DNA from: Kagunavirus 536P11
DNA length: 44,422 nt
Reading direction: 5' to 3' (one strand)
Sequence record: OZ035764.1
Positions 10,707-32,884 of this stretch are shown here, one piece after another; the stretch's first letter is position 1, and every line of letters starts with the position of its first letter. Both the position numbers and the translations under genes were made by a program. The notes beneath the pieces are model-generated. The model saw only the letters and a list, made by a program, of their open reading frames with translations, did no database searches and had not been told where the DNA came from.

Positions 10707-11119
10707 TGGGCTACTTTGAGGACTTAACCAAAGCGTTTGATGTGCCGTTGGTAGCCTTCGGGAACGCAAACGGCATCAAGGTTGCGCTTGAAAACATCGA
10801 CGCGCCGACGTCAACCGATACGCCGTATCTGGCGAGTTACATGTTGCTGGCAGATACGGAACAGGCGGATTTGTTCTTCACCGAGCAACGCTCTGGTATC
10901 TATCAGGTCGACATTAACTACGCATCGGCGCAAGGTAGCGCGCCAATCAATAAAATGGCAGACTTACTTAACACGGCGTTTAAAGCAGGCAAGTCATTTT
11001 CACGTAACGACATCTGCGCCGAGGTTCAATCGGTTAGCCTGGGGCCGCTGATTGTAGAAAACGGATGGGCCAAAAGACCATTGTCAATTAACTTTATTGC
11101 ATTCACCAAGAGGCTGTGA
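10706..11119 (+). CDS. tail completion/terminator-like protein
   Basis: 137 aa ORF immediately upstream of major tail gene. Confidence 0.35.
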   Translation: MGYFEDLTKAFDVPLVAFGNANGIKVALENIDAPTSTDTPYLASYMLLADTEQADLFFTEQRSGIYQVDINYASAQGSAPINKMADLLNTAFKAGKSFSRNDICAEVQSVSLGPLIVENGWAKRPLSINFIAFTKRL

Positions 11120-12288
11120 ATATGACTACAACTCCTTTTAAGGGCGCGAATACCGCGCAATTCTATGTGGCGGAAGTTACCCCGGGCGTAACACCGGCTA
11201 ACCCTGTCTGGTCGCCGTTGCGTAACACTGGCGGTGTTCCTGCTATCACCCGCGACACGCTGACCTCCAACGAGCTGGACGGCAGCCGTGAAACTACATC
11301 CATCCGCACCGGTAACAAACAGGTTAGCGGTGAATACGCGATCGAGCTTAGCTCGAAAAGCCAGGACGACTGGCTGGCGGGTGCTTTAGGCGCTACGTGG
11401 CAATCAGGTGTTTCTCTGTCTGGGCTGTCGATTACCGTCGCACCAGCGGGTAAGACGTTCACACGCTCCACCGGCAGCTTTATTACCGACGGCGTTGAAG
11501 TGGGCGACCTGATTGCGTTTACCGACTTAACGGGGGATAACGCCAAACCGTTTATCGTAACCGCAGTAAATGCACTGGTAGTAACCGGGGCGGGTATCCA
11601 ACACACCCTGACCACCGAGAAAAAAACTAGTAAGGCTAAAACCGGCGACACGCTGGAAACCGGTAACACGTGTAAGACGTTCTCTATCCTTACCTGGTAC
11701 AAAGGCCAGTGCGGCGGTACTGACGCGTACACGTTAACCAAAGGCGTGGAAGTTTCTGGTTTTACCATCGAACAGGCTGTTAACGCGATGGTAACTGGCA
11801 GCTTCCCATTCATCGGTCGCAGTCAGGAGATTCTCACTACGCCGCCGACCGGTTCCAACTTCTCATCTGTTACTTTTGGTGATGAGCCGTTCTCTTCGGT
11901 TGACGTTTCCGTGTTCGATGGCTCTACGCCGTTGCGTTGTGATAGCCTTACCATCACCAACGACAACAGCGCGTCCGCGCAGTTCGAACTCGGCAATACT
12001 AATGTGGCGTTTGTGGAGCGTAGCCGCGCGGCTAACACCTTCTCCATCTCCGGCAAGCTGTACGACATGGCTATGATTCAGAAGTTTATCAACGAACAAC
12101 AGGTAGAGATTAACTCTATTCTGGCGGGGGTAAACGGGGCTATGTCTTTCAGTCTGAAACGTGCAGAACTCACGGCGGTTACGCCAGAGATTGGCGGGCC
12201 TGAGTCAATCACTCAGAGCATAGAAGGACAGTCCACAGGCAATCAATACCAATCTTCTATTGTAATACAGCGTATTAGCTACGCGTAA
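11116..12288 (+). CDS. major tail (tube) protein
   Basis: 390 aa ORF upstream of chaperone and tape measure; followed by terminator. Confidence 0.55.
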   Translation: MNMTTTPFKGANTAQFYVAEVTPGVTPANPVWSPLRNTGGVPAITRDTLTSNELDGSRETTSIRTGNKQVSGEYAIELSSKSQDDWLAGALGATWQSGVSLSGLSITVAPAGKTFTRSTGSFITDGVEVGDLIAFTDLTGDNAKPFIVTAVNALVVTGAGIQHTLTTEKKTSKAKTGDTLETGNTCKTFSILTWYKGQCGGTDAYTLTKGVEVSGFTIEQAVNAMVTGSFPFIGRSQEILTTPPTGSNFSSVTFGDEPFSSVDVSVFDGSTPLRCDSLTITNDNSASAQFELGNTNVAFVERSRAANTFSISGKLYDMAMIQKFINEQQVEINSILAGVNGAMSFSLKRAELTAVTPEIGGPESITQSIEGQSTGNQYQSSIVIQRISYA

Positions 12289-12313: not shown

Positions 12314-12808
12314 CTATTTACCGTGGTTCTCGTGGAACCCTAAATCTCTTTCAGCAACTCTCCTCGCAGCAACTGCATCTAGTAGCGTTTTAAAGCATCC
12401 GATGTGTGTTTTTACGTTATTGTTGAATATCTGTGCGTACCACAACCTTTCTTTCGCGTTCCAGTAAACCCCGGTTACTCCTGATTTATTATTACGCTGT
12501 TTTGACATATTTTTATGGTTTTCCGCATTGGACTTTTTAGCTAAGTTAAGCGGTCTATTGTTTATTCGGTTATGGTCTAGATGGTCTATTTGATCTGACG
12601 AGGTTAGCTTATCGTTAGGATTGTTTAAGTCCCAAGCTATACGGTGCGCCGCGTGCCATTTACCTCTGAAAAATATCCTTCTATATCCGTCTCGCTGTAC
12701 AGTACCTGCCTCCTCTCCAGCCTTAGCCCTCCCAGAACGTGTTACTCTGTTAAATATCCTTCCTGAAATTAAGTCGTATATGAAAAATTCATTCCAGTCC
12801 ATAATCAT
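12314..12808 (-). CDS. HNH-AP2 homing endonuclease-like protein
   Basis: HNH-like segment IDHLDHNRINNRPLNL and AP2-like segment GVTGVYWNAKERLWYAQI; start at MIMDW (RBS AGGAGA) preferred over track start 12940. Confidence 0.55.
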   Translation of the reverse strand: MIMDWNEFFIYDLISGRIFNRVTRSGRAKAGEEAGTVQRDGYRRIFFRGKWHAAHRIAWDLNNPNDKLTSSDQIDHLDHNRINNRPLNLAKKSNAENHKNMSKQRNNKSGVTGVYWNAKERLWYAQIFNNNVKTHIGCFKTLLDAVAARRVAERDLGFHENHGK

Positions 12809-12845
12809 CTCCTGTTGCGATAAGGCCCCTTTCGGGGCCTTTTTC

Positions 12846-13076
12846 TCACCCATCAATGTTACTTCGATACTCCCGTAACTTCTCCAGACTTTCAATTGCT
12901 TCGTTAAGGTCTGTATCAGCGTCCTTATGCCCTCTACCACCCATACATAACAGTTTCTTTAATGCGTGCTGTAGCGCGGGGTCGTTAATAACGAAGGCCC
13001 TTAGTACATCATAAACATCACATGTAATGGAATCGCCTGCGGTGTTGGTAAGTGTATGGTCGTATTTATTTGTCAC
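12846..13076 (-). CDS. hypothetical protein
   Basis: 76 aa ORF in minus-strand cassette. Confidence 0.4.
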   Translation of the reverse strand: MTNKYDHTLTNTAGDSITCDVYDVLRAFVINDPALQHALKKLLCMGGRGHKDADTDLNEAIESLEKLREYRSNIDG

Positions 13077-13266
13077 TGTTAACCCTCTTAAATCGGGCTA
13101 TGCCTGACTCGTTAATGTTGCCTATTTCAAAGAAGCTGCGATATTTAGGAGAATACATTCTTACGTCGCCATTCTCTAGGGTGATCCCTTCATATACAGC
13201 ACCTACTTCGAACCCATTTTTCTCCGCGTACGGACTCACATCGGTGCATTCATACATGTCTTTCAT
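13066..13266 (-). CDS. hypothetical protein
   Basis: 66 aa ORF in minus-strand cassette; ends overlap neighbours. Confidence 0.4.
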   Translation of the reverse strand: MKDMYECTDVSPYAEKNGFEVGAVYEGITLENGDVRMYSPKYRSFFEIGNINESGIARFKRVNSDK

Positions 13267-14393
13267 CTCAGCATCTCCGGTGAAATAGTTAAACGTGCGA
13301 CCTCGCCATATTCGGCACTATAAGTAATTACATTTGCACTACGGCCTGACATCCATCCGCCGCGGGAGGCGTAGGCGTCTTTAGCCGCTAAGGTGCGGTG
13401 TTGCTCAACAATCATGTTACGGCTTTCTACAATCTTCTGGTGGTGCAGGTGGCCTACGTGGGCGTAGCTGTAGACGCTCTCGCCGAAAGCCTTACGGAAT
13501 TTAGAAATCATTACTGACTCTATGGTATCAAATCTCGCACGGTGCCCATGGTGCATGAATAGTGTAGTTTTTCCATGCTGAACCATCTTGTATACGTCGG
13601 GGGAGGTGTCAACAAATACGCGAGGTTCGTTGTCATACAATGTGCAGAACATTTCGGCAAGCCATACGGAGCCGACAGGGTCGTGGTTACCTTGAACGAT
13701 TAAAAGTTTGACTGTGTGATGTTTAACAAGCGCCATATCAACAACACGGCGCACCATACGAATCATGTAGCGCACAAGTTTCTGATAACGCGTATCTGCG
13801 TCCAACACATGGCGTGACTCAGGGGTAACTGCATCCAGACTATCGAAGTGCGCGAAGTCCCCAAGCAGGTTAATAACCCCAGTTCCCGCGTCCGGTGCTT
13901 TCTGAAATGCAGCATCGAACCAGCGAGAAAACAGGTCTTCCGCAATCTTCATATCCCAGTCGTCTCCGCTCTCGTCTGCCCATGCCAGCATACCGAGATG
14001 AAAATCAGATACCGTGTAAAGATTGAGTAGTTTATCGTCACGTTTGGCCCGAGTCGCTTTAACAGGCGCTACCGGGGTAATCTCCGACTTCATACCCTCG
14101 ATTACGGCGTTCATCAACTCGACCTGACGTTCGGCATCTGTGTCGGTCTTAACCCATTGCAGTTTAGTGTTGCCGAACTCGTCCACAAGTGACGACGTTC
14201 CTTTAATCTTGTAGCCATCTGGTACAAGGTGGCTAACGTCGCGCCCGTGGCCTACGCCTTTCTTTGCCAGCTTCGCTTTACGGATACGAATTACACGGTC
14301 TGAGATGCCATATTTACGGGCTATATCGATAGTTTTAACTCCGGCGTTCAATTCTTCCTGTAACTGTTCGTCGGTTATTTTCTTCCGGGCCAT
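13263..14393 (-). CDS. HTH domain + calcineurin-like metallophosphoesterase
   Basis: N-terminal HTH-like segment (IDIARKYGISDRVIR); phosphoesterase motifs DFH, GDFAHFD, GNHD, HHGH, GHLHH; RBS GAGGAAG. Confidence 0.6.
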   Translation of the reverse strand: MARKKITDEQLQEELNAGVKTIDIARKYGISDRVIRIRKAKLAKKGVGHGRDVSHLVPDGYKIKGTSSLVDEFGNTKLQWVKTDTDAERQVELMNAVIEGMKSEITPVAPVKATRAKRDDKLLNLYTVSDFHLGMLAWADESGDDWDMKIAEDLFSRWFDAAFQKAPDAGTGVINLLGDFAHFDSLDAVTPESRHVLDADTRYQKLVRYMIRMVRRVVDMALVKHHTVKLLIVQGNHDPVGSVWLAEMFCTLYDNEPRVFVDTSPDVYKMVQHGKTTLFMHHGHRARFDTIESVMISKFRKAFGESVYSYAHVGHLHHQKIVESRNMIVEQHRTLAAKDAYASRGGWMSGRSANVITYSAEYGEVARLTISPEMLR

Positions 14394-14431
14394 GCTTACT
14401 TCCTCGTGTTTAGGATTTGTCCTATACTAGC

Positions 14432-14623
14432 TCACTTCTCGTTAACATTCGAGTTGCACGCCCAGATTAAAATAAATACCCACGGCAGCAGAACCCAACC
14501 AAGAAACAGATTAGCCATGAATATCGCCAACTTCGCTTTATGGTTGCGGAAATACGCAACCAGGAAAGGTGTGAAATAAGCGAGAAGTGCAAACAGAATT
14601 AAGGAAATTGGTAAACTTGACAT
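14432..14623 (-). CDS. small membrane protein, superinfection-immunity (Imm)-like
   Basis: 63 aa, two TM helices; FLGWVLLPWVFILIWA resembles Imm-family signature. Confidence 0.45.
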   Translation of the reverse strand: MSSLPISLILFALLAYFTPFLVAYFRNHKAKLAIFMANLFLGWVLLPWVFILIWACNSNVNEK

Positions 14624-14653: not shown

Positions 14654-14682
14654 ATAGTACGCTATTATATTGGGGTGCGCAA
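14654..14682 (-). promoter_or_regulatory. early promoter with operator (TTGCGC-17-TACTAT, core AATAG-N4-CTATT)
   Basis: minus strand reads CACCCCAATATAATAGCGTACTATTCACTTA, near-identical to 37391-37423. Confidence 0.55.
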
Positions 14683-14789: not shown

Positions 14790-15206
14790 ATGAAACTTTC
14801 TGATTTTTATTTCGAAGACAAAGCGCTGGTAGGCAAGAAGATGCCGATTCTGCTGCCGAATGGCGAAGACTCCGGTGAGTGGCTTAACGTTGTAAATCCG
14901 GATGCGGACGCCGCCGTTAAAGCCGGGCGTGCTTTCATTATCGCGTACCGCCGCGGTCTGGCGCGTTTTGAAGAACTGGAAAAAGCTGCCAAAGAATCCG
15001 GCGACTATACTGAATATAACCTGGCGGTTAACGAACTGGCGGAAGACCTAAACCGGCAACTCGCGGCAGAAGTCGTAAACGGCTGGAGCTTTGACGAGCC
15101 ATTCTCTAAGGAAGCGTTTAACAAATTGCTCGATCAGTTCAAAGCATTAGGCACACAGGTAGCGGCGTTCCATAACGCTGAGCGCAAAGCATTACAGGAA
15201 AAGTAG
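14790..15206 (+). CDS. tail assembly chaperone (G-like)
   Basis: 138 aa ORF directly upstream of tape measure; -1 frame is open from 15182 through 15571. Confidence 0.6.
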   Translation: MKLSDFYFEDKALVGKKMPILLPNGEDSGEWLNVVNPDADAAVKAGRAFIIAYRRGLARFEELEKAAKESGDYTEYNLAVNELAEDLNRQLAAEVVNGWSFDEPFSKEAFNKLLDQFKALGTQVAAFHNAERKALQEK

Positions 15207-15571
15207 ACGCGCTGTACAGGTTCGCCACCTACGAGTTTGTGGATAAGCATAAAATCAGAGAGTTTGATTCTATAGCTGACGGACACGAACAGGCGCTTAT
15301 CGCGATGGGTGTAATCGATAAGAAAAAACGTGCAGCGCGACGGGGTGGGCCAGAATGCCCGCCCCTTTTTATATCCACCTTTGAGACGTATTGCGACATT
15401 AAGTTTACGCGACACGTGCGCGAGGACGCTGTAGTATTGTTTGCAAGAGAATCCGTTACGTGGCAAGACCTGAAAGCCTATCTCGATGTTACGCAAAAAC
15501 AGCTTAGCCTGTTCGAGATAGACATTATCATGGGCTTAGAAGCAATCTTTGAAGGTAGAAATCATGGCTGA
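15200..15571 (+). CDS. -1 frameshift extension of tail assembly chaperone (T-like)
   Basis: -1 frame open across G stop; GGAAAAG at 15197-15203 two codons before stop; track ORF 15239-15571 is the downstream part. Confidence 0.4.
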   Translation, partial: KVDALYRFATYEFVDKHKIREFDSIADGHEQALIAMGVIDKKKRAARRGGPECPPLFISTFETYCDIKFTRHVREDAVVLFARESVTWQDLKAYLDVTQKQLSLFEIDIIMGLEAIFEGRNHG

Positions 15572-31621: not shown

Positions 31622-32884
31622 TTATTCTAAATCTTCTTCACTAACCTGATTCCACTCAGGACGTTTGTCGTCTGCCGTTGCGACACATGGCGCACCGGGC
31701 TTACGGGTAATGAAGTCTTTCAGTTCTTCTTCCGGTATAACTTTAACGGCCTCGGTCGGCGTCATAAGCACTTCTTTAGTCAGCTTGTCGCCGTACTTCT
31801 CGAATACCGCATCGGAATCTTTCCACGCACGGTTGCCCATCTTACCCTCAACCAGCTTGTACCCCGGCACTTTCTTACCGGAATGCAACGCGGCAGCCAT
31901 AGCTTTCTCAACCTTGTCGATGTGTTGACGCAACAACGGCAACTTCTCATACTCGGTTACGAGTTGCTCTGGTGTCAGTTCCAGTGCAAAATCGTCCTCC
32001 AGTTCTTCCGCCAGTACAGAATTAACGGTTTTTGTACGTGCGGCACATTGTTCAGAGAACCGACACCACTGACAGCCATCGACCGACGGCTTGAAGTCCG
32101 ACGCTTTAAGGTTCTTTTTACCACGGAAATACGCATCTAATGCTAACAGTGCACGTTTCCGTGCGAACTTAGCGAACAGTTCCAGACCTTCAACCGAGAT
32201 GTCCCACTCCGACGCGCCCCCAGCGTACGGCTGGAAGATGACCAGACGAACAACTGTGATGTTATATCGTCTCTTGAGTCGGCGATAAACACCGAGAGCA
32301 TAAAGCATAAGCTGCTTGTTTTCTTTCGCTTCAACACGGTGCCGTCCTGTTTTAAGGTCTCCAATAATGAGCATGTGCTCGTCAGTGTTAGCCAGTTCCT
32401 GCACGGCAACAAGGTCAGCGGTCCCGAACGTCTCAACGCCTTCATATCCCGGATGCAGCACCTCTGTAAGATTGACGCGCATTTCCAGCTTAGCGTAAGT
32501 CGCCACGTCTATAATCGCCTTGCAGTAGTCGGTATACTTGCGCACCTGCTCAATCATGTCAGCCGTGATTAGTACAGCGCCTTTCATCGGACTAATTAGC
32601 GCCTTAATCTGGCCTTTACCCTCGTCCAGCACGTAAGCGCCGACTTCACGCTCTAGTGGCAGTGCATTGCCGCGGATATAGGCGTTGAGATGTACCTCAG
32701 CTATGGTGTGCATAGCCGTGCCTAATACCGCGGCTTTACCGGACGTGTTGGGGATATCTTTCTCACAGGCCAGTGATGCGGCGCAGCTTAGCCACTTTTT
32801 AGCCCCGGACGGCGATAGTAAAGCGTGTACGTCGTTATTGCCACCGCGTTCTTTTAGTTTCATGCTCTTAAACTCCCACCCCAT
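31622..32884 (-). CDS. PD-(D/E)XK nuclease (DUF2800 / Cas4-RecB-like) with C-terminal Cys cluster
   Basis: 420 aa; IGDLK...E.K nuclease-like core; C-terminal CQWCRFSEQC. Confidence 0.5.
   Translation of the reverse strand: MGWEFKSMKLKERGGNNDVHALLSPSGAKKWLSCAASLACEKDIPNTSGKAAVLGTAMHTIAEVHLNAYIRGNALPLEREVGAYVLDEGKGQIKALISPMKGAVLITADMIEQVRKYTDYCKAIIDVATYAKLEMRVNLTEVLHPGYEGVETFGTADLVAVQELANTDEHMLIIGDLKTGRHRVEAKENKQLMLYALGVYRRLKRRYNITVVRLVIFQPYAGGASEWDISVEGLELFAKFARKRALLALDAYFRGKKNLKASDFKPSVDGCQWCRFSEQCAARTKTVNSVLAEELEDDFALELTPEQLVTEYEKLPLLRQHIDKVEKAMAAALHSGKKVPGYKLVEGKMGNRAWKDSDAVFEKYGDKLTKEVLMTPTEAVKVIPEEELKDFITRKPGAPCVATADDKRPEWNQVSEEDLE

Follow-up and report, generated by a model that had tools for sequence, protein, structure and literature searches.

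A helix-turn-helix metallophosphoesterase of Kagunavirus 536P11 belongs to a widespread phage family and may act on DNA

The window analyzed here, a stretch of 44,422 nucleotides from Kagunavirus 536P11 (OZ035764.1), is a near-complete Kagunavirus (Guernseyvirinae) genome. Its minus strand carries a complete gene (13263..14393) for a protein of 376 amino acids (aa) that joins an N-terminal helix-turn-helix (HTH) domain to a calcineurin-like metallophosphoesterase (MPE). Our analysis shows that the MPE gene is real and intact, and that the protein, judged by its sequence, is a routine member of an already catalogued phage family. We tentatively favor the view that it is a DNA nuclease or end-processing enzyme that works independently of Rad50 and is tethered to DNA by its HTH.

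The reading frame begins with an ATG codon, and a Shine-Dalgarno element, GAGGAAG (14399..14405), can be read from the sequence 5 nt upstream of it; these coordinates, and those of the protein's domains and motifs, refer to the minus strand. The 3.6-kb region around the gene shares 88–91% DNA identity with many E. coli Kagunavirus phages, and the protein is 94–96% identical to annotated proteins of sequenced coliphages, its Kagunavirus orthologues. Measured against the Bas74 orthologue, the ratio of nonsynonymous to synonymous substitution rates (dN/dS) is 0.059 overall, 0.048 for residues 1–118 and 0.058 for residues 119–376. Both halves of the protein are thus under strong purifying selection, with dN/dS of about 0.05.

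An AlphaFold2 model of the protein (mean predicted local distance difference test score, pLDDT, 94; predicted template-modeling score, pTM, 0.83) displays the layered α/β sandwich of the MPE fold over residues 119–376 (13266..14039). All five motifs that supply metal ligands in calcineurin-like MPEs (DxH, GDxx(D/H), GNH(D/E), H and GHxH) are present, and we assessed their conservation in an alignment of 108 relatives at 31–50% identity. Motif I is D130-F-H132 (13998..14006), with both D130 and H132 invariant. In motif II, G178-D-F-A-H182-F-D184 (GDFAHFD, 13842..13862), G178 and D179 are invariant, and H182 and D184 are at least 90% conserved. Motif III, G235-N-H-D238 (13680..13691), has invariant N236 and H237 and an at least 90% conserved D238. 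The same pattern is seen in motif IV, H281-H282-G-H284 (13542..13553; H282 invariant, G283 and H284 at least 90% conserved), and in motif V, G314-H-L-H317-H (GHLHH, residues 314–318, 13440..13454; G314 and H317 invariant, H315 at least 90% conserved).

The initial annotation of this DNA had described an HTH fused to an MPE with a full motif set, and that description holds: every motif it quoted and the HTH-like string IDIARKYGISDRVIRIRKAKL (residues 22–42) are present, the fold is predicted, and the catalytic site is intact, its metal-ligand motifs being invariant or at least 90% conserved in the relatives. Pfam gathering cut-offs were not reached by the query alone (Metallophos_2, 23.0 versus 27 bits; Metallophos, 19.1 versus 21.5 bits). 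This is a detection limit for a divergent clade and no argument against the MPE fold, so that the assignment rests on motif conservation, dN/dS and the predicted fold rather than on Pfam.

Ahead of the catalytic domain, the model places helices at residues 8–16, 21–28 and 32–44. Together with a GerE profile match and Pfam HTH matches, these define a predicted three-helix HTH domain (residues 8–44, 14262..14372) of the LuxR/GerE or sigma-70 region-4-like type. A basic, glycine-containing linker follows (residues 45–60, 14214..14261); pLDDT drops to 67–70 over residues 41–60, and the linker is probably flexible. Residues 61–104 (14082..14213) form a family-specific β-hairpin and helix subdomain in the model, with strands at 61–70 and 76–85 and a helix at 87–104. 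Its residues G74 and W80 are at least 90% conserved in the 108-sequence alignment, and the subdomain is retained in a Campylobacter phage homologue that lacks the HTH, where the match begins at residue 65.

HTH matches are also found at the N terminus of other family members. Among the 108 relatives, N-termini match the Pfam families HTH_1 (24 sequences), HTH_8 (17), HTH_50 (12), Sigma70_r4_2 (11) and GerE (6), and matches to HTH_23 and HTH_28 also occur in the family. The best sequence match of the family profile in the PDB is GerE (E = 0.027), and some longer members have two HTH domains. The N-terminal HTH is a family-wide feature.

The family itself is PHROG 704, labeled ‘DNA repair exonuclease’, to which residues 4–375 align over profile positions 2–389 of 390 (E = 1.7e-162). 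That label is a prediction from remote homology. A search of NCBIfam with the protein returned only noise. Orthologues in T1-like phages are 41–46% identical to the window protein, and the proteins at 94–96% identity have been deposited under names that include ‘metallophosphoesterase’, ‘DNA repair exonuclease’, ‘calcineurin-like phosphoesterase’, ‘DNA polymerase II small subunit’ and ‘winged helix-turn-helix domain-containing protein’. A tblastn search found a homologue in 2041 of 50,697 phage records, 1956 of which cover at least 80% of the query, so about 4% of sequenced phage genomes carry an HTH-MPE homologue. The carriers include Guernseyvirinae, Drexlerviridae (for example Webervirus KP36), Sodalis phage SO-1, phages of Vibrio, Rhizobium and Aeromonas, an N4-like roseophage and, in a form without the HTH, Campylobacter phages. 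An exhaustive search of representatives at 50% identity gave 4486 clusters at E ≤ 1e-3 and 1129 at E ≤ 1e-30, and genomes of Pseudomonas, Stutzerimonas, Xanthomonadales and Burkholderiales carry further members in their prophage regions. The gene is reported as persistent in 508 of 522 Drexlerviridae genomes in a 2026 paper (PMC13164509).

This breadth across phage records, clusters and prophages shows that the HTH-MPE fusion is neither rare nor new. The novelty implied by the initial annotation is therefore lost: the same architecture is present at full length in the 1956 records and is already annotated in GenBank. Gene, fusion and family are all catalogued, and as a discovery the window adds nothing new. 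We also observed that the roseophage homologue (Roseovarius Plymouth podovirus 1 orf28; locus L007, 3950–5110; 25% identity) is annotated as a ‘structural protein’, despite being surrounded by nucleotide-metabolism genes.

Comparison with solved structures places the family among the phosphoesterases without assigning it a close relative. A sequence search of the PDB with the single protein found nothing. The family profile found only two kinds of MPE chain there, both weakly, namely T. maritima Mre11/SbcD (E 0.19–0.63) and P. putida ‘Nuclease MPE’ (E about 1), and it aligned the GDxxH of motif II with GDLLH of T. maritima Mre11. Pairwise structure comparison of the model scored highest with the proofreading exonuclease DP1 of PolD (15.8), followed by S. 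aureus SbcD and T. maritima Mre11 (15.0 each). LpxH (13.6), MJ0936 (13.4), Vps29 (12.9), YfcE (12.8), GpdQ (12.1) and Rv0805 (11.8) scored lower, as did P. putida Nuclease MPE (9.4) and the PPP protein phosphatases (8.6–9.5). Foldseek against the PDB returned Mre11, Rv0805 and DP1 with E values around 1e-7 to 1e-8 (best E = 4e-8) and template-modeling (TM) scores of about 0.4, and fold matches in BFVD were uncharacterized phage proteins only. As modeled, the fold is nearest to DNA exonucleases, and TM scores of only about 0.4 indicate a distinct MPE clade with no close solved relative. The initial annotation had left the substrate open pending clear orthology to a characterized protein phosphatase or SbcD; no such orthology emerged, given the empty PDB sequence search, the profile E of about 0.2 and the Foldseek TM of about 0.4.

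We also compared gene neighborhoods across the family. We collapsed 177 loci to 38 MPE lineages at 80% identity and identified neighbors by Pfam and by hidden Markov models built from the neighbors themselves. Within four genes of the MPE, 8 of 38 lineages encode a HAD_PNKP protein and 7 of 38 encode a P-loop protein. The HAD neighbor matches the phosphatase domains of Pnkp1 and T4 PNK; the P-loop neighbor has a Walker A motif and could not be classified further. In two lineages a DNA ligase is a neighbor as well. One of them encodes a DNA polymerase and, further along, a contiguous set (L131, 3479–8252) made up of a 5′-3′ exonuclease, an EndoVII-like protein, the MPE, HAD_PNKP, the P-loop protein and a DNA ligase with a KxDG motif. 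In the other, Campylobacter phage CP8 (L008, 2654–4951), the GenBank annotation places an ATP-dependent DNA ligase directly upstream of the HTH-less homologue. These two sets look like complete end-processing and sealing cassettes.

Elsewhere the company is similar. In T1-like phages the MPE gene follows helicase, VRR-NUC and Dam genes and precedes PNK, a kinase and the lysis cassette, and in a metagenomic phage it follows a primase-helicase. NinG/Rap lies upstream within four genes in 3 of 38 lineages, and just beyond that distance in a fourth; of 27 bacterial prophage loci, 4 likewise have it upstream. The antiterminator gene Q is directly downstream in 5 of 38 lineages. In lambdoid phages and prophages the MPE gene stands downstream of NinG/Rap, often directly before Q, as seen in viral contigs (L148, L092, L136 and L094) and in Pseudomonas and related genomes (L188, L196–L198 and L204). 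What these placements share is the distal part of the replication, recombination or ‘nin’ region, where the neighbors are enzymes that handle DNA ends. Phage lambda carries NinI (lambda phosphatase), an unrelated MPE, between NinG and Q, and two different MPE clades may occupy the same slot of the nin region.

From these observations we infer a DNA substrate, DNA binding by the HTH, the timing of expression and a biological role for the MPE. In the model that we favor, the protein would be an active two-metal phosphodiesterase of the calcineurin-like superfamily acting on DNA, and the HTH, on its flexible basic linker, would bring the enzyme to duplex DNA. The catalytic core, most like those of the 3′-5′ exonucleases and endonucleases DP1, SbcD and Mre11, would need no Rad50/SbcC partner. 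To judge from gene orientation, the gene would be expressed with early or middle, replication-type genes. The enzyme would trim or cleave DNA ends or nicks, either in replication and recombination intermediates of the phage or in host DNA that is being degraded. In many relatives its products would be handed to the adjacent PNKP-type 3′-phosphatase, P-loop kinase-like protein and sometimes DNA ligase.

Several observations argue for this model. The catalytic residues are invariant in 108 relatives and both domains are under purifying selection; the weak PDB profile matches are to Mre11/SbcD and Nuclease MPE, and motif II has the GDxxH form of Mre11. The HTH is family-wide and doubled in some longer members, and neighborhoods across 38 lineages contain DNA-handling genes. 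There is also a functional precedent. The mycobacteriophage MPE A10ZJ24 Gp48, which has no HTH and has its motif I at D10, shows phosphodiesterase and DNA nuclease activity (PMC12287305). It is an early protein, toxic to the host, that breaks down host DNA and is required for overcoming M. tuberculosis defenses (PMC12287305). Gp48 is only distantly related to the HTH-MPE family and hence serves as a functional precedent rather than as an orthologue. For phages T1 and TLS, the early gene products that degrade the host genome have not been identified, according to the authors, and the TLS homologue is listed only as a possible ‘proof-reading exonuclease’ (PMC11447400). The missing host-genome-degrading enzymes of T1 and TLS are a further point in favor.

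A number of results weigh against this model. We found no experimental work on any member of PHROG 704, and no significant similarity to any characterized nuclease (best E about 0.2, family profile against the PDB). A C-terminal capping domain of the Mre11 type was not found, as the MPE fold runs to the last residue of the model, 376. Rad50/SbcC is not annotated in the closely related Bas74 genome and was not found among the seven replication-region open reading frames (ORFs) of the window that were scanned. The HTH is absent from some members, such as the Campylobacter phage homologues, and the association with PNKP and ligase holds for a minority of lineages and does not occur in this window. 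Finally, the phage already encodes a PD-(D/E)XK exonuclease and a gp2.5-like annealing protein for recombination.

We also asked whether the window holds another MPE gene or an SbcC partner. The candidate, the annotated ‘exonuclease’ at 31622–32884, falls in PHROG 69, and BLASTP shows no relationship to the MPE. The CRISPRi-ART paper on PTXU04, considered as a possible Kagunavirus, describes a 92-gene phage with a 2,198-aa polyvalent protein and makes no mention of a phosphoesterase. Neither literature searches on phosphoesterases of Kagunavirus or Guernseyvirinae nor the BASEL paper yielded a statement on the MPE gene.

A bolder version of the nuclease model, which we regard as doubtful, gives the enzyme of T1-type and Jersey-type phages one of two specific roles. 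It could be the host-chromosome-breakdown enzyme of T1-like and related small siphophages, or it could be the nuclease arm of a DNA end-processing pathway that the phage itself encodes and that dispenses with Rad50. In either case a PNKP-type 3′-phosphatase, a P-loop kinase and a ligase would be optional partners. If such a pathway exists, it would let phages survive or exploit DNA breaks made during infection.

The same neighborhoods and motifs bear on other substrates. An unlikely explanation is that the enzyme heals RNA or DNA ends, removing 2′,3′-cyclic phosphates or 3′-phosphates (activities that lambda phosphatase and the MPE module of bacterial Pnkp show in vitro), and that with the HAD phosphatase and P-loop kinase it repairs tRNAs or nicks cut by host anticodon nucleases or other defense nucleases. 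HAD_PNKP, with its match to the RNA-repair enzyme Pnkp1 and to T4 PNK, and the P-loop gene do adjoin the MPE in T1-like phages, in the Dhillonvirus-like coliphage PCEc3 and in some Kagunavirus phages; a ligase follows the cassette in one lineage; and 2′,3′-cyclic phosphodiesterase activity is known for MPE-type enzymes (PMC2190708, PMC3675462). However, an adjacent HAD 3′-phosphatase would make a second 3′-phosphatase redundant, PNKP and RNA ligase are absent from most lineages, including this window, and the HTH suggests duplex DNA over tRNA. The ligases are also DNA-ligase-like, by the KxDG motif in the L131 sequence and by GenBank annotation in CP8. Somewhat less probable than end healing is a small-molecule phosphodiesterase that degrades nucleotide second messengers, be they cyclic mono-, di- or oligonucleotides, to blunt CBASS, Pycsar, Thoeris or type III CRISPR, or that acts on mononucleotide pools in salvage together with the kinase. 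Annotations of the P-loop neighbor often read dNMP kinase, and such kinases have been hypothesized in print to boost nucleotide supply (PMC13164509). A soluble enzyme for small molecules would nevertheless have no obvious need of a conserved DNA-binding HTH, the structures matched best are those of polynucleotide exonucleases, and the neighbors are DNA-handling enzymes. The degradation of defense signals, which the initial annotation had entertained, loses ground, as the DNA-binding domain and the gene neighbors point to polynucleotide substrates. A PADLOC search gave no family at E ≤ 1, which says little since its models cover defense rather than counter-defense proteins.

The placement near Q raises two further explanations, both quite improbable in our view. 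The protein could be a Ser/Thr/Tyr protein phosphatase, a positional analogue of NinI that is perhaps tethered to DNA or the transcription machinery by its sigma-70-region-4-like HTH. This would suit its location downstream of NinG in lambdoid phages and prophages and directly upstream of Q in the 5 of 38 lineages, as well as the resemblance of the HTH to sigma-70 region 4 and GerE. But motif II, GDFxHxD, lacks the arginine of the PPP-type GDxVDRG, motif III is GNHD and not GNHE, and a shared slot in the mosaic nin region is weak evidence of shared function. The least probable explanation of all is that the protein is mainly a transcription regulator whose HTH controls late or lysis genes or its own operon, the MPE domain being a sensor or accessory part. 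Consistent with this, the gene repeatedly lies just ahead of Q or the lysis cassette (in T1-like phages, lambdoid phages and a Vibrio phage), and its N terminus weakly matches PHROG 836, ‘late transcriptional activator’ (E = 0.0097); an exonuclease-holin-endolysin-spanin module is reported in 508 of 522 Drexlerviridae (PMC13164509). On the other hand, the invariance of all metal ligands places catalysis under selection, the MPE gene here lies within the tail module and a long way from the lysis genes, members without an HTH exist, and the recognition helix of the HTH is poorly conserved.

In this phage the tail tube gene (11116–12288, plus strand) and the tail assembly chaperones (14790 onward, plus strand) flank a short minus-strand island that holds the MPE gene. 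In order of transcription, the island encodes a 63-aa membrane protein, the MPE, a 66-aa ORF, a 76-aa ORF and an HNH endonuclease. The 63-aa protein (14432..14623, minus strand) belongs to the superinfection-immunity family (Pfam Imm_superinfect, E = 1.2e-12; PHROG 1039), and in most close relatives its gene likewise precedes that of the MPE. When the island was scanned for promoters, the only result was a weak consensus match that overlaps the start codon of this first gene. A perfect TATAAT is found at 14664–14669 (minus strand), about 40 nt upstream of the gene, with no good −35 element. We also observed that the tail assembly chaperone ORFs on the far side (14790–15206 and 15239–15571, plus strand) correspond to a pair annotated in phage K1ind2 as a joined (j2) product; a programmed frameshift of this kind commonly precedes the tape measure gene.

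Downstream of the MPE, positions 12314..13266 (minus strand) form a variable slot, filled here by the two small ORFs and the HNH gene. The ATG of the 66-aa ORF (13066–13266, minus strand) lies in a 4-nt overlap with the MPE stop codon (ATGA), an arrangement suggestive of translational coupling. Neither PHROG nor Pfam gives a match to this ORF, and it does not resemble the K1ind2 PNKP gene. The 76-aa ORF (12846–13076, minus strand) matches only the C-terminal ~70 positions of much longer PHROGs, namely phrog_2452 (235 positions, function unknown; E = 1.7e-33) and phrog_17613 (‘ATPase’). Many Kagunavirus relatives also have it downstream of the MPE, and it looks like a stand-alone small domain. 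That the two ORFs are remnants of the PNKP and P-loop genes of relatives was ruled out, as there is no similarity. The homing-type HNH endonuclease (12314–12940, minus strand; HNH_3, PHROG 99) has a listed GTG start that overlaps the 76-aa ORF, and the KMB36 orthologue is annotated as shorter, so the true start is probably further in. In 8 of 38 lineages an HNH endonuclease is found close to the MPE, suggesting that insertions recur at this site, and the gene here fills the slot that holds HAD_PNKP and the P-loop protein in many relatives.

We compared this slot across 33 loci in which the MPE shares 73% identity or more with that of the window. HAD_PNKP and the P-loop protein occupy it in 9 of 33 (for example K1ind2), and the others have the 76-aa ORF, HNH, other small ORFs or nothing. 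An important caveat is that the MPE is constant in 33 of 33 loci because the loci were collected through it; every close Kagunavirus or Jerseyvirus relative examined carries the gene. The MPE is a conserved element of a variable island and is not itself accessory. Its placement in an ‘accessory cassette’, as first proposed, is accordingly revised: the gene is the constant part of the island, only the downstream slot varies, and it is persistent in the Drexlerviridae (508 of 522; PMC13164509).

The family is among the most widespread phage enzymes whose function is only predicted. Knowledge of its substrate would put right thousands of annotations that are guesses, among them ‘DNA repair exonuclease’, ‘DNA polymerase II small subunit’, ‘oxidoreductase’ and ‘structural protein’. 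The way in which T1-type phages destroy host DNA, or repair their own, might become clear as well.

Comparison with known systems helps to place the HTH-MPE enzymes. Mre11/SbcD proteins have a capping domain and a Rad50/SbcC partner, whereas the window protein instead has an N-terminal HTH and a β-hairpin subdomain. The archaeal PolD small subunit DP1, a 3′-5′ proofreading exonuclease, combines an OB fold with a phosphodiesterase domain and works in complex with the catalytic subunit DP2; the window protein does not share this organization and has no DP2. TLS and T1 reportedly encode no apparent DNA polymerase, yet keep the HTH-MPE gene (PMC11447400). Lambda NinI (lambda protein phosphatase) and the MPE module of bacterial Pnkp share the superfamily with the window protein. 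It is not structurally close to Pnkp, and it departs from the PPP phosphatases, NinI among them, in having neither their GDxVDRG and GNHE motifs nor the PPP-type fold. The mycobacteriophage cluster A MPE (A10ZJ24 Gp48) and P. putida ‘Nuclease MPE’ (6nvo) are stand-alone MPE DNA nucleases without Rad50. The closest counterparts are the PHROG 704 members T1p16, KP36 gp63, K1ind2 ORF19 and Bas74_0022, which have the same architecture and length as the window protein and show no material difference from it.

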